A stretch of DNA of 64,000 nucleotides, taken from Dictyostelium discoideum. Its lineage: Eukaryota. Each line of letters starts with the position of its first letter. The stretch's first letter is position 1. A program made the translations under genes and the position numbers. The stretch spans positions 288,001 to 352,000 of the forward strand of contig CM000153.2 of the NCBI GenBank assembly GCA_000004695.1. The letters are read 5' to 3'. Shown piece after piece: positions 3,263 through 46,000 of the stretch. The notes under the pieces are model-generated. The model saw nothing but the letters and a program-made list of their open reading frames with translations. It did not search any database and was not told where the DNA came from.

Positions 3263-8249
<4,987 letters not shown>

Positions 8250-20199: not shown

Positions 20200-20440
20200 A
20201 TGTTTGGTGTTTTATTTGTTTCTTCAATTAAATCTAGTTCAGGTTTGGTTTACAAAATGATATTAGTGTACAAATTTAAAAGTTAATTTAATTGTTGATA
20301 GTTCTAATAAAAACAATTCATATTCAATTGAATATGTTGTGGATAGTTCATGTACTAATATGATTAATGCAGTAAATTATTTTAATAGTTATTTAGATCA
20401 CCGGAAAAAGCAATTTATAATTGTATTTGGAATATGTTGA
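20200..20440 (+). pseudogene. Truncated, frameshifted 5' fragment paralogous to the secreted glycoprotein gene at 23593
   Basis: MFGVLFVSSIKSSSG...NLIVDSSNKNNSYSIEYVVDSSCTNMINAVNYFNSY parallels MLSRKFNIILLLCVLFVSAIKSSSN...NLIVDSNKTNSYSSECGSSFEDSCNNIVDAVNYFHEY at DNA and protein level. An in-frame stop follows ~15 codons after the ATG, and nothing follows downstream. Confidence 0.5.
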
Positions 20441-21163
20441 TGTTTATGAATATTTATTTCTCCATACACAAAATCCCAAGGAGTAATTATTGATGGATTA
20501 ACCCATATGGAAATTTCTTTGACTATGGTAGTTGTTAAAGGTGTAGACCCACTTCCAACAATAAATACATAATTACAAGTATCAAATATTACTTTTGTAA
20601 ACTTTGTCAGATTATCACTTCTTTTATTATTTGAGAAAAAGGTTAATTATAAGAATTCCTGCGTAATTTTAATTAATTGTAATAAAATCTAAATTCGTCA
20701 TTTATTGAATCAAGAGATGTTCAACTCCTGGATATTTTTTAAAATTTTCTAATAGCACTATCCAAATTTAAAAAATTCGATTCCCTTACAAGAAAATAAA
20801 AAAACCATTTGAGATTTTTCACTTGTTTTTCAAATTTATGGCTTAAATTTTTTATAATTGTTTTTTTTTTTTTTTTCACATTTTAACAAGTGTGTATTAT
20901 TATTAAAAGATTGGAAATCTTGATTTTTACCAATCACTGGTGATGATGCTGCATTAACACTATCAAATCTAATACAATGTTATTGAATTTGATTTTGAAA
21001 AATTTGCTAAAATCTGACCTCTCTACCACCTAAACTATTACTAATATCCACTATTTTCTTATACACAACCAATACTATTTCCATTAACAGAATTTAAACT
21101 TGATAAACTTATTGAATTGGTTGTTGGTGCTACTATTGCTGTTGTTGATGTTGATGTTGGTGG

Positions 21164-21201
<38 letters not shown>

Positions 21202-21437
21202 CTTGTGCTTCTGTTACTATATTCACCTAACTTTGTTAATTCAGTTAATTCATCGCTATCTCCCATTCCAAAATTATCTTTGATTTCTTCAAGTAACTCT
21301 GTTGCAGTTACATTAGTTTCTAACTATATCTGCTTTTGTTAAATTATTACCATGAACTAATAAGAGTAAATGTTTGAATTTACTAAATGATAAACCTTTC
21401 CCATCAGCAGAGAAAATTATATTTTCAATAATAATCC

Positions 21438-21469
<32 letters not shown>

Positions 21470-21984
21470 TATATTTATTTGATTGAATAATACTATTATA
21501 AATTTGATAACTTTATATTTAAAATATTTTATATTTTATAATGAGTTGATAAAATTATTATTATTATTATTTAAATGTGCGTCAACTATAAAGTGTTTTA
21601 ATTCACTTATTTAATATTCACTTATTTGTGACTAACTTCCTTACATTAAAAAATTAAATGGAAAAAAAAAAAAAAAAAAAATATAAAATATAAAAATAAA
21701 ATAGTCTTTTCAATAGTTGTGGGGAATTTTTTTTGAAATTTGAAAGGACTAAATTTTTACTTTTTTTTTTTTTTAGTGAAATTAAATAAAATTCACTGCG
21801 CAGTGGAAAGAAATTTTATTGAAATTTCCCTGCAACAAATTTCCATATAAAATTCAGTGCTGGGAAAAATACTCAGAGTAACGCCAAAGTACTTTTGAAA
21901 TTTTTTAAAAAAAATTGAAAAAAATAAAAAAAGTACTGTAGTACTCTCATACTTTGAAGTACTTTATTACTTTTTCTCAATTTG

Positions 21985-22022
<38 letters not shown>

Positions 22023-22075
22023 ACATATATTTTATACTATTATTTATTTTATTATTATTATTTATTTTATTATTA

Positions 22076-22920
22076 TTATTTTTTTAATTTTTTGTTTTTC
22101 ATTAAAAAAATAAGAATAGATGCGTACTTGTCAGTGGTTGAGCATTTATCTTTAGTTAAAATTCTACCAGCAGATGAAAATAATCTTTCGGATTCTACAG
22201 AGGAAAGAGGTAAAGACAAAAGAATGAATGCTATTCGTGATAAAATCGGATATTTACTATTGATTGTATTATTTGACCACCATTTAAAATTATTTGTAAA
22301 TTGACTAGCCACATGTTCATCGTAAACTTTATATAGTTCTTGAATTTCCTGGTGAGATACCAACCTCATTTATTTGAGAGTTTTCATTATCATTATCATT
22401 ATCTTTACTTGTTATATTATCTACTTTATCTATATTATCTATTTTATCATTATCTATATTATCATAATCTAAATTATCATTATCTAAATTATCATTATCT
22501 AAATTATCATTATCTAAATTATCATTAAATAAATTATCATTATCTAAATTATCATTATCTAAATTATCATTATCTATATTATTATTATCATTATCTATAT
22601 TATCATTATCTAAATTTCCAACTCTATCTACATTACTATGATTAACATCATCATTAAAGAATCTATCCACTTCTCTACTATTATTATAATTTTGTTCATC
22701 TTCATCATCTAACTTTCTTTTTTTTTTTTTTCTTTTTTCAGAAAGTGATTTTATTTGGTCCGTTGTAAATAATTTACTATTAAAATAATATCTTCTCTTA
22801 AAAATTTAATATTTGTAAAAGATGGTAAAGGTAAATTATTTAATTCATATAATTGTTCAATTCTAGCTTTTCCTAATTTTTCAATGCTAAAAATTTGAGG
22901 CCTACTCATTTTATAATAAA
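22076..22920 (-). mobile_element. Remnant of a hAT-superfamily transposase gene (C-terminal dimerisation domain only), with upstream D/N-rich repeat and a short N-terminal ORF
   Basis: ORF 22369..22076 has FTNNFKWWSNNTINSKYPILSRIAFILLSLPLSSVESERLFSSAGRILTKDKCSTTDKYASILIFLMKN, which matches the hAT C-terminal dimerisation signature (WW...YP.L...A...LS.P.SS..SER.FS.AG...T..R..L). No BED finger or RNase-H-like catalytic core lies upstream; there are only (DNxDN)n repeats and a disrupted ORF MSRPQIFSIEKLGKARIEQLYELNNL.... This looks like a decayed or domesticated element. Confidence 0.55.
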
Positions 22921-25714: not shown

Positions 25715-25918
25715 GGTTATGATGATGATTGTTTGAAAAAAACGAAATTGTTTAAAAAAAAAAAATTAATTTAAATTAGAAAGCAAGATTTTTTTTTTTT
25801 TTCTAGGAAAAGTTCGCCAAAAAAAAAAAGATTTTTTTTAAATTGATTCTATTTTTTCCCACCATTCCTAAACTATGATTTTTTTTTTTCTTTCAAAGTT
25901 TTTTCTTTATTAACTACA

Positions 25919-27895
25919 TTGGTAATAAACTCTGGGAGTTATGTTGATAATTACTTTTTTATTTCTCTTTTTGATAATAAATCAGAAAGCTATCCAATTT
26001 TAAAACCACAACAACAAATGGAATTAAGTTCATATATTAATGCTTTTTTATACATTAATTGTACAAATTGTGATGGAGCAAATTTAATAGGTTTATCAAA
26101 ATTATACAAAAATAGAGGAAAAGATATTCATGTACACATTTATGATGTCTCTTTGAATGATAGTGGAATTTATTTGGAGGCTCCAATTATCCATTTAAAA
26201 GATCTGGTGCCTTACAATTACTAACTGATTTTAGAATCTTTGACAATCAAATATTTCAATTTAATGGTAGTTCAATAGTATCAATAAGTAGCTTTTTCAT
26301 TCCAAAAGTTTATGATTTTCAACCATATATTATTGGAAAATTAGAATTTTCAAATGGTACAATTTATAACTTGGATTATAATACTTTGAATAATTTTTTA
26401 TTATACACAAGGCATATTCAATATTCCAAGTTGTTATGGTAATGGTAATTTTTCAATTTATATTAAAGATAAATTGGTACATACAAATCCATTTAGTTAT
26501 CAACCACCATCAAAGTGGATATCATCATTCACTCAAAATCAAGAAAAGGTACAATTACATCTTTCATTCTCACTTTCTTTATTACAATAACAAGTATTAA
26601 ATATAATGATAAAAATGGAAAAGATTTAGATTATAATTTAATTGAACCAAATATTATTTCATTGACACTAAATACATATTCTACAAATGCATTTTCATTT
26701 AATGATGATTATCATAATGAAACTTTACCAAATGGACTTCTTAATTAGTCCGTCCAATTATTTATAGTTATCCAATTGAAAATGATGTAATAACAATGGA
26801 GGGTCTCTTTTTTTAAAAATTATCAAATTATAAATTCTATCAAGGTGATAGTAAAAATGCTGTTTCTTTTGATCAAGTAACCTATTTCGACATTTCAAGG
26901 TTAGGTTTAATTATGAATCAGGCTTCACGTGTATATGTTAATAGTGATGATTATTCGTTCATAAGGGTACCAGATCTAACTTTTACGAGCGTGCAAGACC
27001 AATTATTGTTTACATGTAGTAATTGTTTAGGTGGATATATCAATATAAATGAACCAGAAAGTAATCAAGATTCTCAATTCTCTCAAATTGGTACAATTGT
27101 AAAACAATTTAATACAAATACAATTTTTAATAAATACAATATTTTACATTTACTAAAGATTCAAAAACAATAGTTATTCAACCACCATTACCTACAAATG
27201 TAATAGTTCACGAAGATTCAGCTCAATATTCAACTTTCAGTAATAATACTATTATAGTTAGTGCTGATTTTTTAATGGATAAATACAATGGTTTTGATAA
27301 TATCGATTTCCAATTTAAATTTGATAATGGTATAATTTATTCAGCAAATAAACAACTTTTATCTAAATCGGTTCAAAACTATAAATATCAAATAAATGCA
27401 CCATTTGCATATGGATCTGGTAATTTTAGTGCATTTGTTACTTTTGAAAATAGTAATAAGTCAATAACAAATTCGATCCCATTCTATTATCCAACAAAAC
27501 CAATAATCACTTCAATGTCATCAATCAAGGATCAAGAACTTATAATAAGAGGTGATGGTTTCTTTGGTGTAAAAATAGTTGCTTCTTTTAAAACAATTGA
27601 TCGAATTACTGTCGAATGTGAATATAAAACTTATAACCAAGATACAAATAGAAAATTTTATTGTCAGTTTAATCATATGTCCTATTACATACAATATTCC
27701 CCAGATGATCCAATTACAATTCAATTAAGAAATAATGGTGAATTAAATTCCAAATTTGAACCAGCTTATACCCAAACCTTTTTTTATGATTCAAAATCTA
27801 ATTCAGAAATGTTAAACAATGATATTAGTTTACATTCAGTTTTCTCCAAATTACTTGTAACTCTTTTTATTCTAATATCAATATTGCTTCAATAA
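25919..27895 (+). pseudogene. TIG-like glycoprotein family copy 1: exon-3 and exon-4 homologues only, multiple frameshifts/stops
   Basis: The broken ORFs 25919..26224, 26515..26748, 26913..27173 and 27275..27895 each match successive parts of exons 3-4 of the intact copies (VDNYFFISLF..., ITSIKYNDKNGKDLDYNLIEPNI..., LLFTCSNCLGGYININEPESNQDSQFSQIGTIVKQFNTNTIFNKYNI, ...SLHSVFSKLLVTLFILISILLQ). No exons 1-2 are present. Confidence 0.8.
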
Positions 27896-27944
27896 ATAAA
27901 TAAAAACAAATAAAGACACAAAAACATTATTTTGATATCTAAAC

Positions 27945-27947
<3 letters not shown>

Positions 27948-28018
<71 letters not shown>

Positions 28019-28021
28019 TTT
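27948..28021. repeat. (TTA)n microsatellite
   Basis: Perfect tta repeats. Inverse-complementary to the (AAT)n blocks at 30602, 35689 and 41067. Confidence 0.9.
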
Positions 28022-28205
28022 AAGTTCAGCCAGAGTTGATAACCACAATTCTTGATAGGACGGAAGAGATCAAAGAATGTAATGTTGTACCATGTTTACC
28101 CGCGAAAACTTGATTACTACTTTTTCAATTTAATTGAAGATCTTTCATGCATGTTTACGTGATACCAATACTCTTGCAATCCATTTGAAAGATAAGATTT
28201 AATAA

Positions 28206-28345
28206 TGTTGGTTGAATTGATTCAACTATTACTATTACTATTACTATTACTATTACTATTGTTATTGTTATTGTTATTGTTATTGTTATTGTTATTGTTA
28301 TTGTTATTGTTATTGTTATTGTTATTGTTATTGTTATTGTTATTA
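28206..28345. repeat. (CTATTA)n then (GTTATT)n hexamer satellite
   Basis: Seen directly. The reverse complement resembles the (GATAGT/AATAGT)n block at 30100-30265. Confidence 0.85.
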
Positions 28346-28559
28346 CTATTTCTACCAATACTATATTCACTACCTAAACTATTACTCTCTCTACTATTTT
28401 ATCTACCAATATTATCTCCATCAATTGAATTTAAATTTTATAACTTGTTGAATTTGTTGATGCTGTTGTTGTTTGTTTGTGTGCTTTTGGATGAGAATTT
28501 ACACAACATATTTGCAATGAGTTTTAAACGTTTCAAACAAATACTTAAAACGGTGCTTT

Positions 28560-28850
28560 TGAATTGATTAAACAATAGCCTTGAGAAGGGTGATGCATCA
28601 CTTGTAATTATACCATAATGACCAGAAGGTGGTTGAGTGGTGCAAAAAGGACGAGTGTACCCAGAACGAATAACAGAATCAATGGCAGCACAAACCAAAC
28701 CACTTACTCTCGATGAGGCTTTAATAGAACGAATTGGACATGCATATGTAGAGTTTTAACTTGGATTGTATATCTCCACATGTCCAATCATTGGAAGTCT
28801 CAGTAGAGCTGATCACAATGCTCACTCTTCGATATCTTGTATTTTTGGCA
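28560..28850 (+). repeat. Dispersed repeat module Q, copy 1 (~290 bp, unknown class)
   Basis: ~85-90% identical to 41505..41790 (caatagccttgagaagg...ccagaacgaata...gcagcacaaac.aaaccacttactctcgatg.ggctttaat.gaacgaattggacatgcatatgt). Both strands carry short ORFs in both copies. Bounded by unrelated sequence. Confidence 0.7.
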
Positions 28851-29164
28851 AGACTCTTGTTAAATTAAATGGAGAGGTATAATATACTTATACCATCCTT
28901 ATTAGTATTGATTGATGTATTTTTTAAACTAGTGGCCACTGAGATATTGACAAGAGCTCGATAGCCGACACTCATTCCATTCTATATGTACAATGGTAAT
29001 TATCGAACCATCACGTGAATAACAACAAGAGTTCCACCATCTTCTAAACTGGTTATGTTTTGTTTACAACTATCTTTAATTTGTGATTTATTAAACATTT
29101 GGTTGGTTTGGAAGGATATGAGTATTGGCAGAAATTAAATTTTTCTCTTTTTCATTTACTAAAT

Positions 29165-29460
29165 CTGAATTATTCAATTGCCAAACCAAATTTACATTTT
29201 CTACAACTTTGAGTATGATCACCGTCCAATGTTGAAGCCATCAATTTAATTGGTAGTGTAATAGGTAACAAATCCAAAGTATGAGTACGATTCTTCTTGT
29301 CCAATTGATCCAAACCATCAATGACCAAAAGTACTTGAGTGATTTCATCACCAATAAACATTCTTATTACTATTATTATTATTACAACGATAATCATCAC
29401 CAATAAACATTCTATTGGTTCAATAGAGTTTACATCTTTGATTCCATATAAACACCTGTA
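29165..29460 (-). repeat. Repeat module R, copy 1 (minus orientation, 3' part), carrying a decayed ORF with a NACHT/NB-ARC-like Walker-B-type motif
   Basis: The reverse complement matches 30880-31060 and 35930-36100. It encodes ...DEITQVLLVIDGLDQLDKKNRTHTLDLLPITLPIKLMASTLDGDHTQSCRKCKFGLAIE. An 18-nt direct duplication, atcaccaataaacattct, is seen at 29346 and 29396. Confidence 0.6.
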
Positions 29461-29629
29461 GATGGTTTCGTGATAAACTAACTAGTTGTTTTAAAAATGT
29501 ACCATCAAAATGAAAAAAAAAAAATGAAAAAAAAAAATAAAAAAAAAAAAAATGAAAAAATAGAAAAAAAAAAAGAAAAGAAAAAAAAAATTTAATTTTT
29601 ACAATTTTCCAAAGATAATTATTTGGCCT

Positions 29630-29729
29630 GTCCCATGCCAAAATTAATATGGCTGCTGAAATTAATATGATAATTTTGGCATGGGACTTATGTCTGCTAG
29701 AATTACCATATTAATTTCAGCAGCCATAT
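29630..29729. repeat. Interleaved inverted-repeat (A-B-A'-B') hairpin element
   Basis: A gtcccatgccaaaatta (29630-46). B atatggctgctgaaattaatatg (29647-69). A' taattttggcatgggac (29671-87), the exact reverse complement of A. B' catattaatttcagcagccatat (29707-29), the exact reverse complement of B. It sits between oppositely oriented copies of modules and satellites. Confidence 0.85.
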
Positions 29730-30099
29730 TAATTTAAGCTTACAAACCACAATTAGTCATCCTTTCCGCTGTTTTTGATGCTCATAAAGATTATCCAACC
29801 AGTGTTGAAATTAAATGAAAAGGATTATTTCGTCATCAAAATCATTAAAACAGCTTTCAAATATTGTAACTTCTTTTTTTTAAAATTTTTTTTATTTTTT
29901 TTAATTGTAAAGGGTTATGGATCGAAAAAACAAATTCATTGCAAATCTGTTGTGTAAATTCATCTTAAAGCACACAAATAAACAATAACAGCAACAACAA
30001 CAAATTCAACAAGTTTATAAAATTTTAATTCAATTGGTGGAAATAATAGGGATAGTATTAACTTAGGTGGAAGATAGTATTGATAGAAATAGAAATAGT

Positions 30100-30265
30100 A
30101 ATAGTGATAGTGATAGTAAAGTGATAGTGATAGTGATAGTGATAGTGATAGTGATAGTGATAGTGATAGTGATAGTGATAGTAATAGTAATAGTAATAGT
30201 AATAGTAATAGTAATAGTAATAGTAATAGTAATAGTAATAGTAACAGTAATAGTAATAGTAATAG
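30100..30265. repeat. (GATAGT)n then (AATAGT)n hexamer satellite
   Basis: Seen directly. Approximately the reverse complement of the 28206-28345 satellite. The flanking motif cgcgggtaaacatgg (30476-90) is the reverse complement of ccatgtttacccgcg at 28082-96. Confidence 0.85.
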
Positions 30266-30600
30266 TACAAACTTCTTGCAATAGGATGGAGGTAGTGCAT
30301 TATTTTTACAAAGAATCTCATCAAGTTCATCTTCTGGAATATCGTCAAAGTGTTCCAACAAATGATTTCTAAAAGCACGTGAAAACACTTTTCTACTACT
30401 ATAAAGATCTGGTGGATTTGAGTTGCGAATAACATAAAGTGTGGGTAGTCTTAAGACTTCTTAGATCTCTGGAATGAATAGTTCGCGGGTAAACATGGTG
30501 TAACATCCCATGATTCTTTCGAAACATCCTATGAAGAATTTCAGATATTACAGATAATCAACTTAAAGAAATGATGAAGAAAAAAAATTAACAAAAAAAG

Positions 30601-31176
<576 letters not shown>

Positions 31177-31418
31177 AACCAAAAATTTAGCGCCAACTTT
31201 AGCAAAACTCTTTGAAGGTATTTTAGATGGTTGGAAGGTATACGATTGTGGCTTTGTTATTCAAGTCTGTAGTTTAAACAATTTACCAATCAATATGCAT
31301 TCGAAAAAAAAAATATATAAATAAAAGATGCAACAATATAATGTTTTTTAGTGTCTTTGTTTATTTATTGTTTTAATTATTGAAAGTTAATTTGATTATT
31401 TTATTAATTTATTTTTAT

Positions 31419-34400
31419 TTATTGAAACAATATTGATATTATAATAAAAAGAGTTGCAACCAATTTGGAGAAAACCGAATGTAAACTAATATCATTGTTT
31501 AGCATTTCTGGATCAGTATTTGAATTAGAATTAGAATTAGAATTATTAAAAAAAGTTTGGGTATAAACTGTTTCAAATTTGTGCTGTGAGAATTTGGAGC
31601 TTTTAATTTGTATTGTAATTGGAGCATCACGAGAATATACTAAACTTAAGTTTTGATTCAATGTAAATTGGCAAATAATGTTTTGATTTTGTTGAATTAT
31701 TTGAGAATGACATTCGATTGTATCTGAAAAAAGACCAGTTATTATATTTTTAAATGTTGTTTTAAAAGAACCAACAACAGTTATATTAAGGAAACCATCT
31801 CCATTTATTTTAAGATTTCCATCTTTAATTTTTGATATTGAATTAATTATTGGTTTTGTTGGATAATTGAATGGAGTCGAATTTATTATAAACTTTCTAC
31901 CATTTTCTAGAGTAATGAATATACTAAAATTACCAGATCCATATGCAAATGGTATATTTAATTGATATATATAGTTTTGAACTGATTTTGATAAAATTTG
32001 TTTATTTGGTGAATAAATTGTACCATTATCAAATTGAAGTTGGAAATCTGTATAATCATAGCCATTGTATTTATCCAATAAGAAATCAGAACTAACTAAA
32101 ATAGTATTATTACTGAAAGTTGAAAATTGTGCTAAACCTCCATCAATTGTTAAATTTTTAGGTAATGGTGGTTGTATAGCTAATGTTTTTGAATCTTTAG
32201 TAAATGTAAAAATTTTGTATTTATTAAAAATTGTATTTGTATTAAATTGTTTTACAATTGTACCAGTTTGAGAGAATTGAGAATCTTGATTACTTTGTGG
32301 TTCATTTATATTGATATATCCACCTAAACAATTACTACATGTAAACAATAGTTGGTCTTGGTCACTTGTAATTGTGAGATCTGGTACCCTTGTATATGAA
32401 TAATCGTCACTATAAACATATACATATGAGAATTGATTAATAACTAAACTAAGTCTTGAACGATCGAAATAGGTTACTTGGTCACTAGAAACAGCAATTT
32501 TACTATCATCTAAATAAAATTTATAATTTGATAATTTTGATACAAAGAGACCCTCCATTATTATAATACCATTTTCAATTGAATATCTATAAATAATTGG
32601 ACGAACTAAATAATATAAAATGTTTTTTGTTAGTGTTAAATGTTAAATTAAATGTTTTGTATGATTGAAATTATAATTTTTGAATTTTTACAAATACTTA
32701 CAGTTTAATCCATTTGTTAAAGTTTCGATATGATAATCATTATTAAATGAAAGTACATTTGTAGAATATGTATTTAATGTGAATGAAATGATATTTGGTT
32801 CAATTAAAGTATAGTCTAAATCATTTCCATTTTTATCATTATATTTAATACTTGTTATTGGAAATAAAGAAAATGGAAATGAAAGATGTAATTGTACCTT
32901 TTCTTGATTTTGAGTGATTGATGAAATCCACTTTACTGGTGGTTGATAGGTAAATAAATTTGAATGAACCAATTTATCTTTAATATAAATTGAAAAATTA
33001 CCATTACCATAACCACTTGGAATATTGAATTTACCTTGTGTTAATACACTATTATTCAAAGTATTATAATCCAATATACATATTGTACCATTTAAAAATT
33101 CTAATTTTCCTATAATATATGCTTGATTATCGTATATTTTTGGAATAAAATGGCCACTTATTGATACTATTGAATTACCATAAAATCCAAATATTTCATT
33201 GCCACTGATATTAACTTTTTGAAAATTAGTTGGTAACGGTAATGCACCAGATCGTCTATATGGATAAATCGGGGCTTCTAAATAAATTCCACTTAAAATG
33301 ATTCCTTTAGTGTCCAATTGGATTGGATAGTATGAATATTTTGTATAATTATTTGGCAATCCTATTGTTTTTGCACCAATACAATTTGTACAATCGATGA
33401 ACAGTAGATTAAAATCATTATCACACCATGAGTTTAATTTCATTTGCTGTTGTGGTTTTAAAATTGGAAATCTGTCAGATGAATAATCAAAGAGTGAAAT
33501 AAAAAAGTAGTTTTCAACATAATCTGTAGAGTTTACCACCAATGTTGTTGAATTGAATGATATTATATTTGATTGGCTTAATATGTGTTTACTTTCGAAA
33601 TTTAATATATATGCTGATAAAAAAATTTTAAAAAATACACCATTTACTGTAATAATATCACCATTGTTTTCACAACTATTGATTATTGGTTCTATAAAAA
33701 GTTAAAATGAACATATTAGAATTTTATAGTTGAAGATAAAAGTGGTGGTAGTATGAAATATTAATTTTTTTAAAAACATAAATTATACATACTAATTGGT
33801 AAAACTTCAATTGCTTCACCATTATTTATTGAAATTAATTTTGAAGAATTTTCATCTAGTGTAAAACGTAAAATATTTGGTTGAACTAATGAATATTTAA
33901 TTGATGTTCTTTTTGTATTTTTATATGGACATACATATTTTGTTTTAATATAAACATTTACATAACAATCATAAAAATTTACAGATGGTGCAGTAAAGTT
34001 AAATTCTTGATTTTCATCACATTGAAAATAATAATTTCTAGTGGAATATCCGCAAATATTATTATTATTACTGTTATATCTTAATTTCAATGCATAATCG
34101 TCAAAACCAAATTTACCAAATTCAAATTCTTCTGTGTTCAAATTTCCAGTTGTATAAAAACTCCCCCTATATATTAATCCAGATTGACTTCTATAGGAAG
34201 ATAGATTTGAACAAATAGAAAAACGGTGCTCATACTAATTAATTTATAAAAATAAAATTTAATAAAATGTAATGCCCAGTACATTAATAAAGCTTCATTA
34301 TACTTACTTGGCTATAATGATCTGGAAAACTGTGATCAACATTTTTTAATTTTGATAAATTCAAAGAAAAATAATTTGAATTAAAAATACATGAATTTAA

Positions 34401-34601
34401 AACGGATGTACCATTAAAATCATAATTATAATATAAATTATCTAAACTTGTTATATTAAATAAATATAAAGGTTGAGTTAATTCAATTTCAACATTACTT
34501 CGAGTTTGAATAATTGATTTAAAGATTGATTGACAATTTAATGTTGTAATAAAAAATAATAACAAAACATTTATTGATAATATTAAATTTGAATAATTCA
34601 T
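31419..34601 (-). CDS. IPT/TIG-like extracellular glycoprotein with GPI-type C-terminus (Tgr-like family), copy 2; intact, 4 exons, ~970 aa
   Basis: Exons 34601..34308 (signal peptide MNYSNLILSINVLLLFFITTLNC; donor CAA|GTAAGT), 34234..33793 (donor A|GTATGT), 33691..32702 (donor T|GTAAGT) and 32605..31419. Phases 0/1/1 are consistent and total 2913 nt. Exons 3-4 carry IPT/TIG-like blocks (NISGNEIFGF..VSISGHFIP....IIGKLEFLNGTICILDYNT...QGKFNIPSGYGNGNFSIYIKDKLVHSNLFTYQPP; PIINSISKIKDGNLKINGDGFLN...IECHSQ...IICQFT) and dozens of NxS/T sequons. The C-terminus SLHSVFSKLVATLFIIISILFQ-stop is a GPI-anchor-like signal. Confidence 0.7.
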
Positions 34602-35280
34602 TCTTTATTATATAATTTTTATTAATAAAATAAAAATTAAATGATTAGAAAAAAAAAAAAAAAAAAAAAATTGTTTTGAAAGGATTATTGAGAATTATTG
34701 GAAAAAAAAAAAATAATAAAAAATAAAATTAATAAAATTAATAAAAAAATCTTAGTAAACTAAGACTGGGGAAGTAAAAATAAAAAAAATAATTAAAATA
34801 AAAAAAAAAAAAAAACTTTTCGGCAATGAAAAAAAATTTCGCAGTTTCCTAGGATTTCAAAAAAAAAATCTTTTTAATGTTTCGTTTTTATAATCCCAAA
34901 AATAGATTTTTTCTTAAAATTACCAGTGCTGAGAACATATTTTTTTTTTTTTAATAATTAAATAAAATAAAATAAAATAAATTAGAATACTCAGTTTTCT
35001 ATATATTCCAATTTGAAATCAAATCAAATCATATCAAATGAAACCAATTTAAATTAATTTAAATCAAATAAAAATAGTGTCATACGTCAAAAAAATAAAA
35101 AAAAAAAAAAAAAATAAAAAAATAAATGCAAGATATCTTTTTTATTTATTTGTTTTTTTTTTTCATAATTAATTTTTGAAAGTTAAATTTTTAAAAATTG
35201 TTTTTTTTTTTATTTTTTTTTTTTTTATTTTTTTTTTTTTATAATTTTCACTTGGGATTTATATTTTTTTTTTTTATTTT

Positions 35281-35682
35281 CCACACACAACATGCTTACA
35301 GATAACAGTTATATATGCATTTAAATATTCATGGACTATATCAAAAATAATAAACATGTTGTACAAAAAAACAAAAAGAGAGAATCAACTACATAAAGAT
35401 TAAATCATTAATTTAATTCAATTGGTAATTGTTTAATAGTTTTATTTTCTGTTATTAATTATAAATTATTATATATTCTAATGGTGATAAATTAATTAGT
35501 TAGCATGAATTTAGATAGACAATGTGTTAATAAAGTTCAACAACCAAAAAATAAACCATCTTCACTTGTTTATATGGAACATCCAATTCAAGAGAATGAT
35601 ATTTTTGTGGTTAGACTTTAGCATAATATATTTGATCAAGAGAGATAGTCAAAGCAATCAAAGAGGTAAACTCTATTGAATC

Positions 35683-35690
<8 letters not shown>
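35281..35690 (+). repeat. Repeat module L, copy 1 (leader preceding (AAT)n + module R)
   Basis: ~80-85% identical to 40741..41066 (ac.gttatata...catg...gactatatcaaaaaataa...aaagattaaatcattaatttaattcaattggtaatt...ggtgataaattaattagttagc...caaagaggtaa.ctctattgaatcaata). Confidence 0.7.
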
Positions 35691-35761
<71 letters not shown>

Positions 35762-35762
35762 G
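35689..35762. repeat. (AAT)n microsatellite
   Basis: Perfect aat repeats between modules L and R. Confidence 0.9.
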
Positions 35763-36219
35763 TGATGGTAATAATAATAAAAGTAATAATAGTGGCTTCA
35801 GTGAATTAGTTCTTAAATTGAAGAAATTAAAGGTATTCTAGAATTAATGAAATCAATTACTTCGACAACAACAGAAACAACAAAAACAATTACCACTCAA
35901 GAAAGTACTGATTCTTTATGAAATCACTCAAGTACTTTTGATCATTGATGGTTTGGATCAATTGGACACAAGAAGAATCGTACTCATACTTTGGATTAGT
36001 TATCAATTACATTACTAATTAAATTGATGGTTCAAGATTAGATGGTCATCATACTCAAAGTTGTAGATGTGTGCACCAACTGAAAATCATTGTCGCACCA
36101 ATGAAAGTTAAAGATGGTCATAGTTTAATATTGGGTAAATTTGAAGAATTCCTTAACAAATTGGATGAATCTGCAATCAATAATCAAATGTCAATAATAA
36201 TAATAATATTAGAAATTTA
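35763..36219 (+). repeat. Repeat module R, copy 3 (plus orientation)
   Basis: Aligns with 30703..31176 along its whole length and ends with the same ...caaatgtcaataata(ata)ttagaaatttag. It is followed at 36220-36700 by sequence whose reverse complement matches 28860-29170. Confidence 0.65.
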
Positions 36220-36811
36220 GTATGAAATGAAAGAGAGAAAAATTCATTCAATGCACCAATTTGTTTAATTAAAAACAAAGATATCTTGGAGCATATTAAA
36301 GATTTCTGTGATATAGTTTCTCCAACTCATATCCTTTCAAATCAACCAACCAAATGTTAAATAAAGCACAAATTAAAGATAGTTGTAAACAAAACACGTG
36401 ATGGCTCAAAAATTGCCTGCTGGTAAAAATTCAATCATTCATATTTTCAAAGCATCTAATGGTTCAGAGTTGTTATAAAATTGGTTTGTCATTCGAATTG
36501 GATCTCTTGTTTCACCTTGGCAAGTCAAGTTGGGATGATACAGTGATAGTTTGGGATTTCATGGTAATACTGTTGTTACCATTGCACATATCAAGTGGGA
36601 TCAGTTCTTGGTGTCGACTACCAAGCGCTTGTCAATATCTCTGTGGTCTTGTTATTCAAGTCTGTAGTTTAAAAAATACATCAATATTAGAAAAATAATA
36701 TAAATAAAGATGAAACAAAATAATGTTTTTTTAGAGTCTTTGTTTATTTATTATTTTATTGTTTCTTTTTTATTGAAAGTAAATTTGATAGTTTTATTAA
36801 TTTATTTTTAT

Positions 36812-39800
36812 TTATTGAAGCAATATTGATATTAGAATAAAAATAGTAGCAACTAGTTTGGAGAAAACTGAATGTAAACTAATATCACTGCTTAACATTT
36901 CATCGTCAGAATAAGTTTGGGTATAAACGGGCTCAAATTGGAAATTTGAATTTTGGTGGCTTCTAAGTTGTATTTCAATTGGATCATTATCAAAATATAT
37001 TTCCAATTTTTCATGTATTGAAAATTGGCAATTAATATTTTGATTTATTATTTCAGGATAACAATCGATTGTTTCCGAAAGGGTACGATTCTCTTTATAT
37101 AAACTATTTGCTTTAAAAGTACCACGTACAATTACATTAAAGAAACCATCCCCATTCATTTTAATATTTCCATCCTTAATTTTTGATATTGAATTAATTA
37201 TTGGTTTTTTTGGATAATAGAATGGGATTGGATTTATTATAAACTTTCTTCTATTTTCAAAAGTAACAAATACACTAAAATTACCAGATCCATATGCAAA
37301 TGGTGCATTTATTTGATATCTATAGTTTTGATCTGATTTTGATAAAAATTGTTTTTTTGCAGAATGAATTGTACCATTATCAAATTGAAATTGGAAATCG
37401 ATATTATCAAAACCATTGTATTTATCCATTAAGAAATCAGCACTTACTAAAATAGTATTATTACTGAAAGTTGAAAATTGGGCCAAACTTCCATCAACTA
37501 TTACATTTGAAGGTAATGGTGGTTGAATAACTATTGTTTTTGAATCTTTTGTAAATGTAAAAATATTGTATTTGTTAAATATTGTTTTTGTATTAAATTG
37601 TTTTACAATTGTACCAATTTGAGAGAATTGAGAATCTTGATCAGTTTGTGGTTCATTTATATTGATAGATCCACCTAAACAATTACTACATGTAAATAAT
37701 AATTGGTCTTGGTTACTAGTAATCGTGAGATCTGGTACCTTAGTAAATGAATAATCATCAATATAAACATATACATGTGAAGCCTTATTCATAATTAAAC
37801 TAAGTCTAGAACTATCGAAATAGGTTATTTGATCGCTGGAAATAGAATTTTTACTATCATCTAGATAAAATTTATAATTTGACAAATTTGACATAAAGAC
37901 ACCCTCCATTGTTATAACATCATTTTGAATTGAATAGTTATAAATAATTGGACGGACTAAATAGTATATATTATGTTTTTTTGTTAGTGTTAATATGTTA
38001 AATGTTTTGTATGGTTCAAAAATAATAATTTTTGAATGTTTACAAATACATACAGTTTAATTCATTTGTTAAAGTTTCGATATGATAATCATTATTAAAT
38101 GAAAGTACATTTGTAGAATTTGCATTTAATGTGAATGAAATAATATTTGGTTCAATTAAAGTATAGTCTAAATCTATTCCATTTTTATTATTATATTTAA
38201 TACTTGTTATTTGAAAGAAATAAACTGGGAATGAAAGATGTAATTGTACCTTTTCTAGATTTTGGGTGACAGATGATATCCACTTTGATGTTGTATAACT
38301 AAATGGATTTAAATGAACCAATTTATCTTTAATATAAATTGAAAAATTACCATTACCATAGCCACTTGGAATACTGAAATTACCTTCTGTAAATACTCTA
38401 TTACTCAAAGTTTTATAATCCAATATACATATTGTACCATTTGAAAATTCTAATTTTCCTATAATATATGCTTGATTATTATACATTTTTGGAATAAAAC
38501 TGCCACTTATTGAAACTGTTGAGATAACATTAAATTCGAATATTTCATTGCCACTGAAACTAACATGATTAAAATCAGTTGGTAACTGTAATGCACTTGA
38601 TCTTTTATATGGATAAATAGGGGCTTCTATATAAATTTCACTATCATCATTCAAAGTGATATAAATATCACTAACTTCAATTGGAGATGAATCTACTACT
38701 GTATAATTATATAACAATCCTTTTGTATTTGCACCAATACAATTTTTACAATAGATGAAAATTGAATTAAAAAAACCAGATTCATGATCATATCTTGAAC
38801 TTAATACCATTTGTTGTTGTGGCTTTAAAATTGGATAGCTTTCAGATTTAATTCCGAAAAGAGAAATAAAAAAGTTATTGTCAACGTAACCTGTTGAGTT
38901 TACTACCAATGTTGTTGAGTTGAATGATGTTATCATCGGTGGTTTTATTTGATAACCACCGTAATAAAATGTATAATTTGATAATACATTTTTAAAAAAT
39001 ATACCTTTTACTGTAATAACATCACCATTATTTTCACAATTATTGATTACTGGCTCTAAAAGAAGTTTTTTAAATTGTACTTATTAGTATTTTATAGGTT
39101 TTTTTGATTATAAAAGTAGTAGTGGTAGGAAATATTAATTTTTTTAAAAACATAAATTATACATACTAATTGATAAATCTATAGTTTTATTACCATTTAC
39201 TGAAATTAAATTTGAAGAATTTTCATCCAATGTGTAACGTAAAATATTTGGTTCAATTAATGAATATTCAATTGGTGTTCTTTTATTATTTTTATATGGA
39301 CATACATATTTTGTTTTAATATAAACATCTACATTACAATCATTAATGGATGCATATTTTGAGGAAGTAAAGTTAAACTCTTGTCTTTCATCACATATAA
39401 AATAATAATCTCTAGACATTAGATCGGTACCACCAAAAATATTTGGACAAGAAATGTGTGGATTGGTATATGTTAATTTTAATTTATAATTATCATTATT
39501 TATACCCAATTTAAAACTTTCTGTATTTAAGTATCCAGTTGGAAATGAAAATTTCCCATATTCTTCAGCACCAGATTGACTGTTTGTAAAAGATAGATTT
39601 GAACAAATTGAAAAAAAGTGTTTATACTAATTGGTTTAAAAAATAAAAGTTAATAAATGTAAAATGTAATATTTTATAAAGTTTCATTTTACTTACATCA
39701 GGGTTATAATAGTCTGGAAAACTATAGTCAATATTTTTAAATTTTGATAAATCAAAAGAATAATAAGTTGAATTAAAAATACATGAGTTTAAAACAGATG

Positions 39801-39990
39801 TACCATTAAAATCATAATTATAATATAAATTATCTAAACTTGTAATATTAAATAATTTTAATGGTTCGGCCAACTGAATTTCAACATTACTTCCAGTTTG
39901 ATTAATTGAAGTATAGATAAACTGACTATTTAATTTTGTAATAAAAATTAAAAAAAAAATAGTTGATAATATAAAATTTGAAAATTTCAT
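36812..39990 (-). CDS. IPT/TIG-like GPI-type glycoprotein, copy 3; intact, 4 exons, ~966 aa
   Basis: Exons 39990..39697 (MKFSNFILSTIFFLIFITKLNS; donor GAT|GTAAGT), 39626..39167 (donor A|GTATGT), 39055..38054 (donor T|GTATGT) and 37956..36812. Phases 0/1/1 total 2901 nt. Collinear with copies 2 and 6 at ~60-75% aa identity. Confidence 0.7.
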
Positions 39991-40056
39991 TTTTTATTAT
40001 GTGCTATTTAATAAAATAAAAATATATTGAAAAAAAAAAAAAAAAAACTATTTATA

Positions 40057-40098
<42 letters not shown>

Positions 40099-40697
40099 AA
40101 ATTATCTAATTCTTATTGGAGAAAAAAAAAATTGGGCAGTCTTGAATGAAAATATCTTGAACATTTTTTTTCCTGAATTTTAAAGTTTAACCGAAAAGTT
40201 TTTTTTTCTTTTTATTTTTTTAATATATTTTTTTATTTTTTTTGTTCAATTTTCTTTAAAAGATTAAATTAAAGAAATCAAAGATGATTTTTTTTTTAAA
40301 AAAAACCTAATCACAAGAAAAAGATTGTAATTAGAATTAAAGTAATTAACTTCTTGAAAGCCATTTTTTTTTCTTTTTTTTTTTCTTTTTTTTTTTTTTC
40401 AAATAAGGAGAGCCTCTCAGAAAATAAAGAAAAAAAAAAAAAGGCGACAAACCCACCTTTGTCACACAAAATTAATTTTCAACAATTTTATTCCAAAATT
40501 AAACTCAAAAAAAAAAAAAAAAAATTTTTCAATTTGGTTATATTAAGGGTGGTTGGATGTAAAAATTTCAGAATTAAAGTGGTGAAAAGTAATTTTGTGC
40601 GGCACTGCGGGTTTGTCTCCTTTTTTTTTTTTTACTTTTATTTTTTTATTTTCTATAGGACTTCCCTTTCAATTTTCCGAAGTTTGAATTGAAAAAA

Positions 40698-40740
<43 letters not shown>

Positions 40741-40748
<8 letters not shown>

Positions 40749-41064
40749 TTCTAACACAAAAAATGCACACAGAAACAGTTATATAAAACATGTTTTCAAA
40801 TATTTATAGACTATATCAAAAAATAAGCATTGCATGTTTTACGAAAAAAAAGAGTATCCCATAAAGATTAAATCATTAATTTAATTCAATTGGTAATTAT
40901 TAAATAATTAGTTTATTTTCTATTATTAATTAATTATATATTCTAATGGTGATAAATTAATTAGTTAGCTTAAAATATAGATGGACAAGTTGCTAATAAA
41001 GGTCAATCTTCAGGTGTTTGTATGGAATCAAAGAGGTAAGCTCTATTGAATCAATAGAATTTTA

Positions 41065-41066
<2 letters not shown>
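40741..41066 (+). repeat. Repeat module L, copy 2
   Basis: See module L copy 1. Followed by (AAT)n at 41067-41160. Confidence 0.7.

Positions 41067-41160
<94 letters not shown>
41067..41160. repeat. (AAT)n microsatellite
   Basis: Perfect aat repeats. Confidence 0.9.
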
Positions 41161-41163
<3 letters not shown>

Positions 41164-41504
41164 TTAATTAAATAAATAAACAAAAAGAATAAATAAATAA
41201 AAACAATAAATAAAAAAAAAGATAATAAAATAAAACTACAATCTTAATTGAAAAAAAAAAAAAAAAAAAAAAAAAATAAATAAATAAAATAAAACTAGTT
41301 TTAATAAATCTAAAACTTTGTAAATATGTTTTGAAAAAAAAAAAAATATTTTATTTTATTGTTTAACTAAATTTGGTTTAAAATTCAAATAAAGAACTAT
41401 CTACTCTAAAAGAGAAACCCTTTTCAAATGAACTCTTTGAATGATTTTATTCAACCATTGTTAACCAGCGGTCAATGAAGCATATTTAGCGCCAAAGGAA
41501 ACGT

Positions 41505-41790
41505 TATTGGTATTAAACAATAGCCTTGAGAAGGTGAAGCATCACTTGTAGTTCTACCATAATGAGCAGCATGATGAGCAGCAGGTGGACGAGTGACGCA
41601 AAAAGAACGAGTATACCCAGAACGAATAAAAGAATCAATGACAGCACAAACTAAACCACTTACTCTCGATGCAGCTTTAATGGAACGAATTGGACATGCA
41701 TATGTTGTGTTTTAATTTCGATTGTACAGTATCAGTAGAGTTGATCACAACGCTCAATATTCAGTGGGAGAATGCTACACTTTTTTAAAC
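41505..41790 (+). repeat. Dispersed repeat module Q, copy 2
   Basis: See Q copy 1 (28560..28850). Confidence 0.7.
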
Positions 41791-41910
41791 AAGTGATTGA
41801 ACTAAGAATGGTTGAAATTAATTGTTTACAACTTCACCTTCTAAACAATCTAAAATACCTTCAAATTGAAAGATATGGGATATTGAGTATTCTAATTTTA
41901 TTATTTTTTT

Positions 41911-42651
41911 TTAAAATAATATATTTATTAATAAAAATGCTATTAAGAAAATATTTAAAATTAATTTTGACGATTTTGATGAATTTGGTTCATTTGATTC
42001 CTTTGGTTCATTTGAAGAATTTGGTTCATTTGATGAATTTGGTTCATTTGATTCATTTGGTTCTGGATTTGGTATTGAATTGAAGCAGGATAAATATTGA
42101 TCATTTTTAGTTTTTGAATATAAAGCATCTTTACAATCAATGGAACCATAGGATTCAGTACTTCCAATTCCAGTACAATCTTTTGATGGGTAGGTTGTAA
42201 TAGTGTAATTTTGAAAAGGATCATAATTGATTTTAATATTTGTACCACATACTGATGAACATTTACCTATTGTAACTATTTTATCATCGACACAAGGACC
42301 TTTTACAAATTTGAAAGAATAATATTTTGAAATTAATGTTGAACAAGTTATTTCCCCATCTATTACTTGATTATTATATCCATCATAGCAATTAAAATTA
42401 ACAATAAATGGATAATTTGTGTTTTCATAGTAACCTTGATTTTTGCAATCATAATCTGTAAAGAATGAAATTTGAAAATATGAATTGTACATTTTTGATA
42501 TCTTTGCATTTTTATTACAAAATATGCCACATTCATCCAAGTTTAATACACCATTTTCACAATTCTTTGCTTGTATTTTAAATACATCATATTGTGATGA
42601 CACAATTAAAAAAATATTAAATAAAAATAAGATTAAAAAAATAAATTTCAT
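41911..42651 (-). CDS. Small Cys-rich secreted protein with GPI-type C-terminus, copy S2; intact, single exon, 246 aa
   Basis: Signal peptide MKFIFLILFLFNIFLIVSS and 12+ Cys (NCEN...ECGIFC...DYDC...NFNC...ITC...GPCVDD...GKCSSVCG...KDCTGIG...IDC...LSC). C-terminal (NEPNSS)n-like repeats followed by SSKSSKLILNIFLIAFLLINILF-stop. Paralogues at 25069, 47121 and 50450. Confidence 0.7.
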   Translation of the reverse strand: MKFIFLILFLFNIFLIVSSQYDVFKIQAKNCENGVLNLDECGIFCNKNAKISKMYNSYFQISFFTDYDCKNQGYYENTNYPFIVNFNCYDGYNNQVIDGEITCSTLISKYYSFKFVKGPCVDDKIVTIGKCSSVCGTNIKINYDPFQNYTITTYPSKDCTGIGSTESYGSIDCKDALYSKTKNDQYLSCFNSIPNPEPNESNEPNSSNEPNSSNEPKESNEPNSSKSSKLILNIFLIAFLLINILF

Positions 42652-43059
42652 GTTTGTTGGAAAAAAAGAAAAATGACAAGAAAAAAAAAAAAAAAAAAAA
42701 AATATTATTTGTTATTTTTTAAAAAAAAAAAAAATTTATTTTTGGGACCTGTAAATTTAAGAAAAATATCCTTTTTTCCAATCTAAAAAACCGTTTTTTT
42801 CTTGGGTTTGCAAAAAAAAGTTTCGGCAAACAATAATTTTGAAAACCCAAGAAAAAAACGGTTTTTTTTTTGTTTGCCAAAACTTTTTTTTTTTTTTTAT
42901 ATATTTTTAATCGAATTTTAGTTTTTTAATTAATTTTTTTTATTTTTTTTTTTTTTATAAATTAATTCTCACCAATCCTTTCAAAACAAATTTTTTTTTT
43001 TTTTTTTTTATTTATTAATTTTAATTTTTATTTCATTAATAAAAAGTATATAATAAACA
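42652..43059. promoter_or_regulatory. Divergent (bidirectional) intergenic region between S2 (-) and TIG copy 4 (+), containing a 25-bp-arm palindrome
   Basis: The two ATGs point outward, 408 bp apart. Arm aaaaaaccgtttttttcttgggttt (42785-42809) and its reverse complement aaacccaagaaaaaaacggtttttt (42843-42867) are interleaved with a second short inverted pair, ggcaaacaa (42825-33) and ttgtttgcc (42870-78). Confidence 0.45.
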
Positions 43060-46000
43060 ATGAATTATTCAAATTTAATAATATCAATAAATTTTTTGTT
43101 ATTATTTTTTATTACAACATTAAATAGTGAATCAATCTTTAAATCAATTTATCAAACTGGAAGTAATTTTGAAATTAAATTGACTCAACCATTATATTTA
43201 TTTAATATTACAAGTTTAGATAATTTATATTATGATTATGATTTTAATGGTACATCAGTTTTAAATTCATGTATTTTTAATTCAAATTATTTTTCTTTGA
43301 ATTTATCAAAATTAAAAAATGTTGATCATAGTTTTCCAGATCGTGACTCTATGACAAATATTGAGCACCTTTTTTCAATTTGTTCCGAACTGTCTTCCTA
43401 TAGCAGTCAATCTGGTTTTATTAAAAGTGAAAGAAAGGAATTTGTTGCAACTGGAGATTTAAATAAAGAAAGTTTTAAATTTGGTAGACTTGGTGTTGAT
43501 AATTATGCATTGAAATTAACATATTCCAGTAATAATTTGTTTTATTGTGAAAGATATGGTGGTACCACTAGAAATTATTATTTTCAATGTGATGAAAATC
43601 AAGAATTTAACTTTACTGCACCATCTGTAAATTTTTATGATTGTAATGTAGATGTTTATATTAAAACAAAATATGTATGTCCATATAAAAATACCAAAAA
43701 AACACCAATTAAATATTCATTAGTTCAACCAAATATTTTACGTTTTACAATGGATGAAAATTCTTCAATTTTAATTTCAGTAAATAATGGTAATGCAATT
43801 GAATCTTTACCACCAATCAGTATGTATAATTTATTTTTTTAAAAAAATTAATATTATTTCCTACCACTACTTTTATCTTAAACTATAAAATTCTAAATGT
43901 TCATTTTAATTTTTTTATAGAGCCAATAATCTATAGTTGTGAAAACAATGGTGGTGATATTATTACAGTAAATGGTTTATTTTTTGAAAATTTTTTATCA
44001 AATTATACATTAAATTTCGAACCGTTTCTGATAGACATATTTGATCCATCAGTAATAATATCATTCAATTCAACAACATTGGTAGTAAACTCTACAGGTT
44101 ATGTTGATAATTACTTAATTATTTCTTTCTTTTATTATCAATCTGAAAGATTTCCAATTTTAAAACCACAACAGCAAATGGAATTAAGTTCATGGTATGA
44201 TGATGATTTTGATATGCTGTACAGAATGTACAAATTGTATTGGTGCAAAAACAATAGGATTGCCATATACTTATACAATACCTTCATACTACCCATTCTC
44301 ATTTTACACTGAAAAAATCATTTTAAGTGGAATTTATTTAGAAGCCCCAATCTATCCATATAAAAGATCAAATGCATTACCGTTACCAACTAATTTTCAA
44401 AAAGTTAATATCAGTGGTAATGAAATATTCGAATTTAATGGTAATTCAATAGTATCAATAAGTGGCCGTTTTATTCCAAAAATATACGATAATCAAGCAT
44501 ATATTATAGGAAAATTAGAATTTTTAAATGGTACAATATGTATATTGGATTATAATACTTTGAATAATAGTGTATTAACACAAGGTAAATTCAATATTCC
44601 AAGTGGTTATGGTAATGGTAATTTTTCAATTTATATTAAAGATAAATTGGTTCATTCAAATGCATTTACTTATCAACCACCATCAAAGTGGATTTCATCA
44701 ATCACTCAAAATCAAGAAAAGGTACAATTACATCTTTCATTTCCATTTTCTTTATTACAAATAACAAGTATTAAATATAATGATAAAAATGGAAAAGATT
44801 TAGACTATACTTTAATTGAACCTAATATCATTTCATTGACATTAAATACATATTCTACAAATGTACTTTCATTTAATAATGATTATCATATCGAAACTTT
44901 AACAAATGGGTTAAACTGTAAGTAAATACTATCATACAAATTATTTAATTTTACATATAACACTAACAAAAAACATTTTATATTATTTAGTTCGTCCAAT
45001 TATTTATAGCTATTTTAGTAATTCAATTGAAAATGGTACGAATATAATAATGGAGGGTCTCTTTGTATCAAAATTGTCAAATTATAAATTTTATTTAGAT
45101 GATAGTAAAATTGCTGTTTCTGGTGACCAAGTAACCTATTAAACAATTCTCATATGTATATGTTTATAGTGACGATTATTCATATACAAGGGTACCAGAT
45201 CTCACAATTACAAGCGAGCAAGACCAACTATTGTTTACATGTAGTAATTGTTTAGGTGGATATATCAATATAAATGAACCAGAAAGTAATCAAGATTCTC
45301 AATTCTCTCAAATTGGTACAATTGTAAAACAATTTAATACAAATACAATTTTAAATAAATACAATGCTTTTACATTTACCAAAGACTCAAAAACAATATT
45401 TATACAACCACCATTACCTTCAAATGTAAAAATTGATGGAGGTTTAGCTCAATTTTCAACTTTCAGTAATAATAATATTTTAGTTAGTGGTGATTTTTTA
45501 TTGGATATATTCAATCGTTTTGATTATACAAATTTCCAACTTCAATTTGATAATGGTACAATTTATTCACCAAATAAACAGATTTTATCAAAATCAGATC
45601 AAAACTATGTTTATCAATTAAATATACCATTTGCATATGGATCTGGTAATTTTAGTGTATTTTCTACTCTAGAAAATGGTAGAAAGTTTATTATAAATTC
45701 AACTCCATTCAATTATCCAAAAACACCAATAATTAATTCAATATCAAAAATTAAAGATGGAAATCTTAAAATAATTGGAGATGGTTTCTTTGATGTAGTT
45801 GTTTTTGGTTCTTTTAAAACAACATTTAAAAATATAACAACTGGTCTTTTTTCAGATACAATCGAATGTCATTCTCAAATAACTCAACATCAAAACATTA
45901 TTTGCCAATTTACAATGAATCAAAACTTTAGTTTAGTATATTCTCAAGATACTCCGATTACAATACAAATTAAAAGCTCCAAATACTCACAGCACCAATT

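Follow-up and report, generated by a model that had tools for sequence, protein, structure and literature searches.

What are two pairs of perfect inverted repeats, interleaved in the order A-B-A'-B' instead of nested, doing between the mirrored repeat tracts of a Dictyostelium discoideum chromosome? The element lies near the middle of the window, the 64,000-nt stretch of DNA that was analyzed here. The first-pass annotation, made from the letters, described it as a bistable or pseudoknot-like structure at the pivot of an inverted segmental duplication and named a rearrangement breakpoint, a cruciform-prone fragile site and the end of a transposon as candidate roles. Our analysis shows that the element is of an already known kind, a catalogued microRNA precursor of the reference strain, and is no new recombination device. 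The breakpoint and transposon roles gained some support, whereas the bistable reading gained none and the main identity of the element as a microRNA precursor had been missed.

Both pairs are exact reverse complements at the positions first given (17 nt for A/A' and 23 nt for B/B') and both are beyond chance. With up to three mismatches allowed, shuffled sequences gave an expectation of 0.33 matches for A and 0.00 for B, compared with three and two observed; the third match to A, at 21260 with two mismatches, is unrelated. When poly-A/T tracts and the N run are set aside, the 64 kb hold just three perfect inverted repeats whose arms reach 16 nt or more with a spacer no longer than 100 nt, namely A/A', B/B' and a hairpin at 42785-42867. 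The element is also GC-rich for its surroundings, as had been remarked, with 32% GC against 23% for the window. The B/B' pair is longer than first seen. Its perfect arms measure 29 nt (29641-29669 and 29707-29735) and sit within longer arms of 41 nt, 93% complementary, that flank a 13-nt centre. The resulting 95-nt palindrome has three mismatches in its 41-nt arms, a perfect basal 29 nt, a 3-nt bulge and a 4-nt apical loop, TTAT, and only 11 nt of the element (29630-29640) lie outside it.

The layout of the element explains why the boxes appear interleaved. Read from left to right, it consists of A (GTCCCATGCCAAAATTA), B, a single A, A', TTAT, a degenerate A, a C, B' and TAATTT. Its left 58 nt are a unit, U (A-B-A'), which is itself a small stem-loop; TTAT and the reverse complement of U complete the element. 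In this second copy, the inner A lacks CCA and carries two substitutions, and the outer A' is shortened to TAATTT, ending at 29735; the last 11 nt (TGGCATGGGAC) are absent and unrelated sequence follows from 29736. Because each arm of the palindrome is itself a stem-loop A-B-A', a palindrome built from such units necessarily reads A-B-A'-(A)-B'-(A'). The four boxes of the first-pass annotation are the well-preserved ones of this layout, and the A/A' pair is no separate device. The coordinates of these and all other features are collected in Table 1.

Table 1. Positions of the element, its parts and the features around it. Coordinates are those of the window unless another locus is named.
Feature	Position	Strand	Remarks
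Main imperfect palindrome, the predicted pre-miRNA hairpin (95 nt)	29641..29735	.	Inverted-repeat search and folds
Box A	29630..29646	+	11-nt 5' extension GTCCCATGCCA outside the hairpin, plus 6 basal main-stem nt AAATTA
Box B, miRNA-5p segment	29647..29669	+	Comparison with published mature sequence
Box A', upper 5' arm of the main hairpin	29671..29687	+	Family-consensus alignment
Degenerate third A copy GTCTGCTAGAATTA, upper 3' arm	29692..29705	+	Direct reading and consensus alignment
Box B', miRNA-3p segment	29707..29729	+	Comparison with published mature sequence
Rfam RF03716 mir-7131 microRNA precursor match	29646..29732	+	96.1 bits
Rfam RF03716 mir-7131 microRNA precursor match	29644-29730	-	94.0 bits
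A-rich tract and 39-nt unique left flank	29494..29629	+	Homologous to ACTFIW L002 17549-17660
HDAC-like pseudogene, 3' part, and (AATAGT/GATAGT)n	29736..30266	+	Starts 1 nt after the hairpin end
HDAC-like pseudogene, 5' part	41431..41870	-	Last base directly precedes 29736 in the unsplit outgroup copies
NACHT-like pseudogene fragments left of the hairpin	28860..29463	-	Repeated at 30732-31400 (+) and 35815-36700 (+)
Left module (TTA)n	27938-28022		
Left module ccatgtttacccgcg	28090		
Left module (CTATTA)n	28225-28371		
Right module (GATAGT)n	30120-30266		
Right module cgcgggtaaacatgg	30484		
Right module (AAT)n	30608-30729		
Innermost left arm of the inverted duplication	28410..28524	.	Partner at 29932-30048, 86.6% identity
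Six paralogues of a secreted/transmembrane-protein gene family	25909-27914, 33553-31400, 38916-36793, 44068-46267, 48471-50347, 52877-54975	+, -, -, +, +, +	
Partial relative of the element	L004 8157-8240		AX4-like assembly, in a paralogous cluster of the same chromosome
Degenerate relative of the element	L048 12849-12941		ACTFIR

Scanning the window against Rfam returned only two matches at gathering level, both of them on this element: RF03716, the mir-7131 microRNA precursor, for which the gathering score is 74 bits, was found on either strand. The matches (E about 1e-20) cover the model from end to end (positions 1-84/84) and agree with the consensus at 80/84 positions (95%), with a single 3-nt insertion near the loop. 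The TGG of box A' is this 3-nt bulge relative to the mir-7131 consensus. The consensus structure is preserved apart from one non-standard pair and the insertion, and the ViennaRNA fold agrees with it. The source organism, D. discoideum, is also that of the family; the window belongs to chromosome 4 of strain AX4, of which it encodes exact proteins: the ORF at 50450-51091 (-) is exactly DDB_G0283241, and DDB_G0283217 is a spliced gene at 26913-27895. Several other ORFs of the window mostly have no exact protein record because the gene models are spliced. We consider it very likely, with a probability of roughly 0.85 to 0.9, that the element is a copy of the D. discoideum mir-7131-family precursor hairpin.

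The published mature sequences match the two arms closely. Meier et al. 2016 give miRNA_can_D3-5p as UAUGGCUGCUGAAAUUAAUGUGG and miRNA_can_D3-3p as AUUAAUUUCGGCAGCCAUAUU (PMC4894637 Table 2). The segment TATGGCTGCTGAAATTAATATGA at 29648-29670 has two mismatches to the former, the 5p equivalent on the - strand (29728-29706) has one, and ATTAATTTCAGCAGCCATATT at 29710-29730 has one mismatch to the 3p sequence. Meier et al. assigned miRNA_can_D3 to thug-S, a DNA transposon, and counted six loci that encode it, distributed over chromosomes 2, 3 and 5; they found its read counts to be lower in rbdB- cells and higher in agnA- cells, and credited the first report of thug-S-derived miRNAs to Avesson et al. 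2012 (PMC4894637). The present copy, on chromosome 4, is outside these six exact miRNA_can_D3 loci. The bases particular to it are an A at position 19 of 5p and an A at position 10 of 3p, and its copy-specific mature sequences read UAUGGCUGCUGAAAUUAAUAUG(G/A) for 5p and AUUAAUUUCAGCAGCCAUAUU for 3p. In the literature searched, the mature miRNA sequences were found only in PMC4894637 and were absent from the supplements of PMC6161686 and PMC11014262; a full-text search for the name mir-7131 gave no match. A scan of metagenomes with the miRNA core yielded 41 single, unpaired matches without a hairpin, which we attribute to chance.

With ddi-mir-7131 (miRNA_can_D3) the element thus shares a full-length hairpin above the gathering score, the same stem and apical loop and the same organism. 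It differs in the 3-nt bulge near the loop (TGG on the + strand, CCA on the - strand), in a miRNA duplex that is fully paired where D3 has a G:U pair, in the extra 11-nt outer arm and in the split pseudogene that directly abuts it. The long, nearly perfect hairpin, alike on both strands, also resembles the young miRNA genes of the plant type that arise by inverted duplication, but here no parental target gene was found: the sole candidate, an hAT-like gene with its A match at 21260, is at chance level.

Folding is dominated by the long hairpin. As RNA, the palindrome alone (29641-29735) folds at -54.5 kcal/mol and the full element (29630-29735) at -54.8 kcal/mol on the + strand and -50.4 kcal/mol on the - strand, with z-scores from -10.7 to -13.1; with short flanks (29620-29745), the values are -60.3 (+) and -58.4 (-) kcal/mol with z about -10. 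As DNA, the main hairpin reaches -34.6 kcal/mol. Over 106 nt, -54.8 kcal/mol corresponds to -0.52 kcal/mol per nt, and B:B' is 100% paired; both values lie within the limits applied to bona fide miRNA genes, for which a hairpin energy below -0.2 kcal/mol per nt and pairing of 60% or more of the duplex are required (PMC6161686).

These energies also bear on the proposal that A:A' and B:B' stems alternate in a bistable switch or a pseudoknot, at the level of either DNA or RNA. The A:A' stem-loop is stable on its own (-26.6 kcal/mol as RNA, with z -6.8, and -17.1 kcal/mol as DNA), and on a + strand transcript it would be made before B'. However, the main hairpin beats it by about 28 kcal/mol in RNA and 17 kcal/mol in DNA, and both the minimum-energy and the centroid structure of the full element contain the main hairpin only, with the outer 11 nt unpaired. 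A pseudoknot would have to cross a 23-bp and a 17-bp stem with connecting loops of 0 and 1 nt, which appears sterically impossible from the geometry. The equivalent of A' in the degenerate relative at L048 is only weakly complementary to A, so that the pairing is not conserved. A 24-nt spacer, such as that between A and A', disfavours cruciform extrusion. Taken together, an alternating structure is very improbable, and the ensemble consists of the long hairpin only.

Once transcribed, the palindrome would fold into a hairpin of roughly 43 bp, from which the nuclear DrnB/RbdB microprocessor would be expected, by analogy with other family members, to cut a 21-23-nt duplex with B as the 5p strand and B' as the 3p strand. 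Since the two halves of the palindrome are almost perfectly complementary, transcripts of either strand would fold into nearly identical hairpins and yield the same mature sequences. Judging from the family, we give transcription and DrnB/RbdB dicing of this particular copy an even chance. The T-run to the right (29871-29905) and the A-run to the left (29494-29590), which is a T-run when read on the - strand, are both directed away from the hairpin, and a pri-miRNA promoter like those described for Dictyostelium in PMC6161686 is therefore not evident.

A palindromic shape alone may raise the suspicion of a fold-back assembly artefact, a check that the first-pass annotation had called for. A second assembly, GCA_054883475.1, speaks against it. 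Its locus L046 (CM142510.1) is collinear with window positions 16765-37895 and 99.8% identical (21.1 kb aligned, with 7 mismatches and 35 gap positions), and it carries the identical A-B-A'-B' element with the same Rfam scores. Unless both assemblies derive from the same reads, this independent copy excludes the artefact, which we regard as next to impossible. The annotation of GCA_054883475.1 places a 110-aa gene at L046 12375-12932 (about 29170-29727 of the window, - strand), whose first exon starts inside the hairpin (ATGGCTGCTGAAATTAATATG/GT...) and continues into the NACHT-like pseudogene; this gene model is probably a mis-prediction due to the palindrome. In the same pseudogene, a short direct duplication of atcaccaataaacattct occurs twice, 45 nt apart, at 29349-29415.

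To place the element in the history of the locus, we compared three further assemblies: ACTFIW (GCA_054859355.1; loci L001 and L002) and ACTFIR (GCA_054859385.1; L047 and L048), both labelled D. discoideum, and ACTFIY of D. cf. discoideum (L049). At the ACTFIW and ACTFIR loci, the best matches to AX4 are mostly about 76-94% identical, and gene-copy number and order differ; this divergence is far above the usual level within a species. The mir-7131 hairpin was not found in the sampled syntenic region of any of the three, although ACTFIR has a degenerate relative of the element nearby, at L048 12849-12941. In all of them, the histone-deacetylase-like (HDAC-like) pseudogene, for which the Pfam Hist_deacetyl match is weak (E = 0.0015, below the cut-off), is contiguous across the point at which it is broken in AX4 (...ATCATTCAAAGAGTTG/AAGCTTACAAACC..., 'caaagagttg/aagcttacaaacc') and lies on the - strand. 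In AX4, AAGCTTACAAACC... starts at 29736 on the + strand and ...CAAAGAGTT ends at 41431 on the - strand, so that only the 5' half has kept its orientation; one base was lost at the junction and there is no microhomology. The right edge of the hairpin (29735/29736) is a breakpoint of a rearrangement in the AX4 lineage, located to the base, which lends support to the breakpoint role suggested at the outset. The blocks of ACTFIW that are homologous to 29736-40047 are mutually collinear and inverted relative to both flanks. The most economical interpretation is that an 11.7-kb segment, 29736-41430, was inverted in the AX4 lineage and that one of the breaks fell at the base of the palindrome. On the other side, sequence homologous to the left flank (29517-29620) is present in ACTFIW, where no hairpin follows it. 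Homology to other lineages thus ends at both edges of the 106-bp element, and in those lineages the left and right flanks do not adjoin.

The mirrored modules reported on both sides of the element do exist, and their centre of symmetry falls at about 29.25-29.32 kb. The element was said to sit at the pivot of this arrangement; it does lie in the 1.4-kb unique spacer between the innermost arms (28525-29931) but is off the geometric pivot. Homologues of (TTA)n and (CTATTA)n on the left, together with their flanks, occur in strains that lack the hairpin here. At least this part of the mirrored layout therefore predates the hairpin, which did not create the inverted duplication.

Where, then, did the hairpin come from? 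The DNA transposon thug-S of D. discoideum was reportedly described by Glockner et al. in 2001. The mir-7131 family has been described as multicopy and as part of this transposon (PMC4894637, PMC6161686), with the hairpin internal to it ('in the intron') and not terminal, according to Meier et al. (PMC4894637). On the strength of this literature, the element may be derived from thug-S, and the copy may have arrived by transposition or capture of a thug-S-type repeat. The transposon role proposed at the outset gains some support from this placement, although the hairpin of the literature is internal and no terminal repeats were recognised around the present copy. Two partial relatives were found, in which GTCCCATGCCA precedes a B'-type segment and part of B. 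Their folds are weak (z from -1 to -2.7), neither matches mir-7131 even at E <= 0.1, and they do not appear to be hairpin genes. Judged by their sequences, the A-B' module occurs as a dispersed repeat, as would fit an origin from a transposon.

Other sources within the window were considered and rejected. Derivation of the hairpin from the hAT-like gene has an alignment score of 34, within the range of shuffled sequences (mean 26, maximum 44); A' can be read as DNFGMG, as can the match at 21260 on the - strand. This gene, resembling hAT-family transposases, lies at 20400-22900 (-) with a Pfam Dimer_Tnp_hAT match at 22076-22369 (E = 1.9e-15). Its best representative homologue among 1.84 billion proteins is 55% identical and no multicopy family was seen, so the hAT domain offered no route to thug-S copies; the gene looks single-copy or domesticated rather than an active multicopy transposon. 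The NACHT-like fragment, with a single homologue, was likewise dismissed as a thug-S ORF.

Two further explanations deserve to be weighed against, or alongside, the mir-7131 precursor. One holds that the element is a terminus or solo fragment of a mobile element, thug-S or MITE-like, that inserted here and whose miRNA-like fold is incidental. The dispersed, multicopy occurrence of the family in thug-S reported in the literature points this way, as do the lack of the hairpin in the syntenic region sampled in three other lineages, the left flank shared with ACTFIW without the element, and the partial relatives that begin with the same 11 nt. Against it, no target-site duplication or second terminus is visible around 29630-29735 (the flanks read ...ttggcct / aagctta...), the hairpin of the literature is internal to thug-S, and the relatives at L004 and L048 neither match mir-7131 nor fold well. 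Compared with thug-S as described, the present element shows no recognised terminal repeats and may be a fragment only. We put this explanation at somewhat under even odds, and it is compatible with a mir-7131 precursor, not exclusive of it.

The other explanation takes the palindrome as a fragile site or recombination substrate, where cutting of a hairpin or cruciform at its base caused the inversion of about 11.7 kb (29736-41430) in AX4. The element has the form expected of a cruciform-prone palindrome, a long, near-perfect inverted repeat with a very short, 4-nt loop and a DNA fold of -34.6 kcal/mol. The pseudogene that is contiguous in three lineages and split in AX4, and the inverted orientation of the ACTFIW blocks, fit as well, and the loss of the outer 11 nt from the right-hand unit is what a cut in or at the palindrome would be expected to leave. 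However, coincidence of edge and breakpoint is no proof of causation, since insertion or capture of the hairpin at the junction is just as conceivable, and the left-hand mirrored modules have homologues in strains without the hairpin here. Paralogy within the six-copy cluster makes the orientation of individual blocks ambiguous in ACTFIR. The outgroup loci contain no homologue of the sequence beyond the second breakpoint (41110-41430), so that the ancestral adjacency cannot be reconstructed; 41230-41430 was tried as a homologue of the ACTFIW sequence that follows the left flank, which the alignment did not support. A causal role for the palindrome is possible though rather unlikely, and two orders of events, a repeat that was present and then broke or one that was inserted or captured at the junction, are both consistent with the data. 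Known palindrome-associated breakpoints, such as those at palindromic AT-rich repeats and the hairpin-capped breaks processed by Mre11/Sae2, resemble this case in the AT-rich, near-perfect palindrome with a 4-nt loop, the exact lineage-specific breakpoint and the truncated end of one arm, but here the break lies at the base of the palindrome and not at its centre.

The mir-7131 hairpin lies within a cluster of related genes. Between 25909 and 54975 the window holds six paralogues of a secreted/transmembrane-protein gene family in both orientations, with NACHT-like and HDAC-like pseudogene fragments between them. The interval from the G-alpha gene to the pyruvate kinase gene contains one gene of the family in about 10 kb in D. 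cf. discoideum (L049) and six copies plus pseudogene debris in about 37 kb in AX4. A second strong hairpin, at 42785-42867, has perfect 25-nt arms (AAAAAACCGTTTTTTTCTTGGGTTT) and a 33-nt spacer, lies between divergent genes at 41911-42651 (-) and 43060-43842 (+), and folds as RNA at -37.1 (+) and -39.7 (-) kcal/mol (z -5.6 and -6.9); neither Rfam nor the miRNA supplements searched contained a match to it. No tRNA genes are present in the window. An assembly gap, a run of 100 N at 7036-7135, falls inside a long, repeat-rich ORF region at 3263-7657 (-) with extreme GC skew (0.4-0.76 at 4-8 kb).

The mir-7131 identification can be extended into a more speculative account. In it, a double-strand break would have arisen at the thug-S/mir-7131 palindrome, or the palindrome would have been captured at such a break; the break would have inverted about 11.7 kb of a rapidly expanding gene cluster in the AX4 lineage, and + strand transcripts could first adopt a different fold through the leftover outer arm (A), which would make their processing depend on the strand. 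We consider this combination of events improbable. If it were true, miRNA-bearing palindromic repeats would be rearrangement hot spots in Dictyostelium. The locus offers a concrete case, testable by PCR, of whether thug-S-type palindromes promote rearrangements in the gene-family clusters of this organism. For the miRNA itself, the single-base differences of the mature sequences from the published loci mean that small-RNA reads could be assigned specifically to the chromosome-4 copy.
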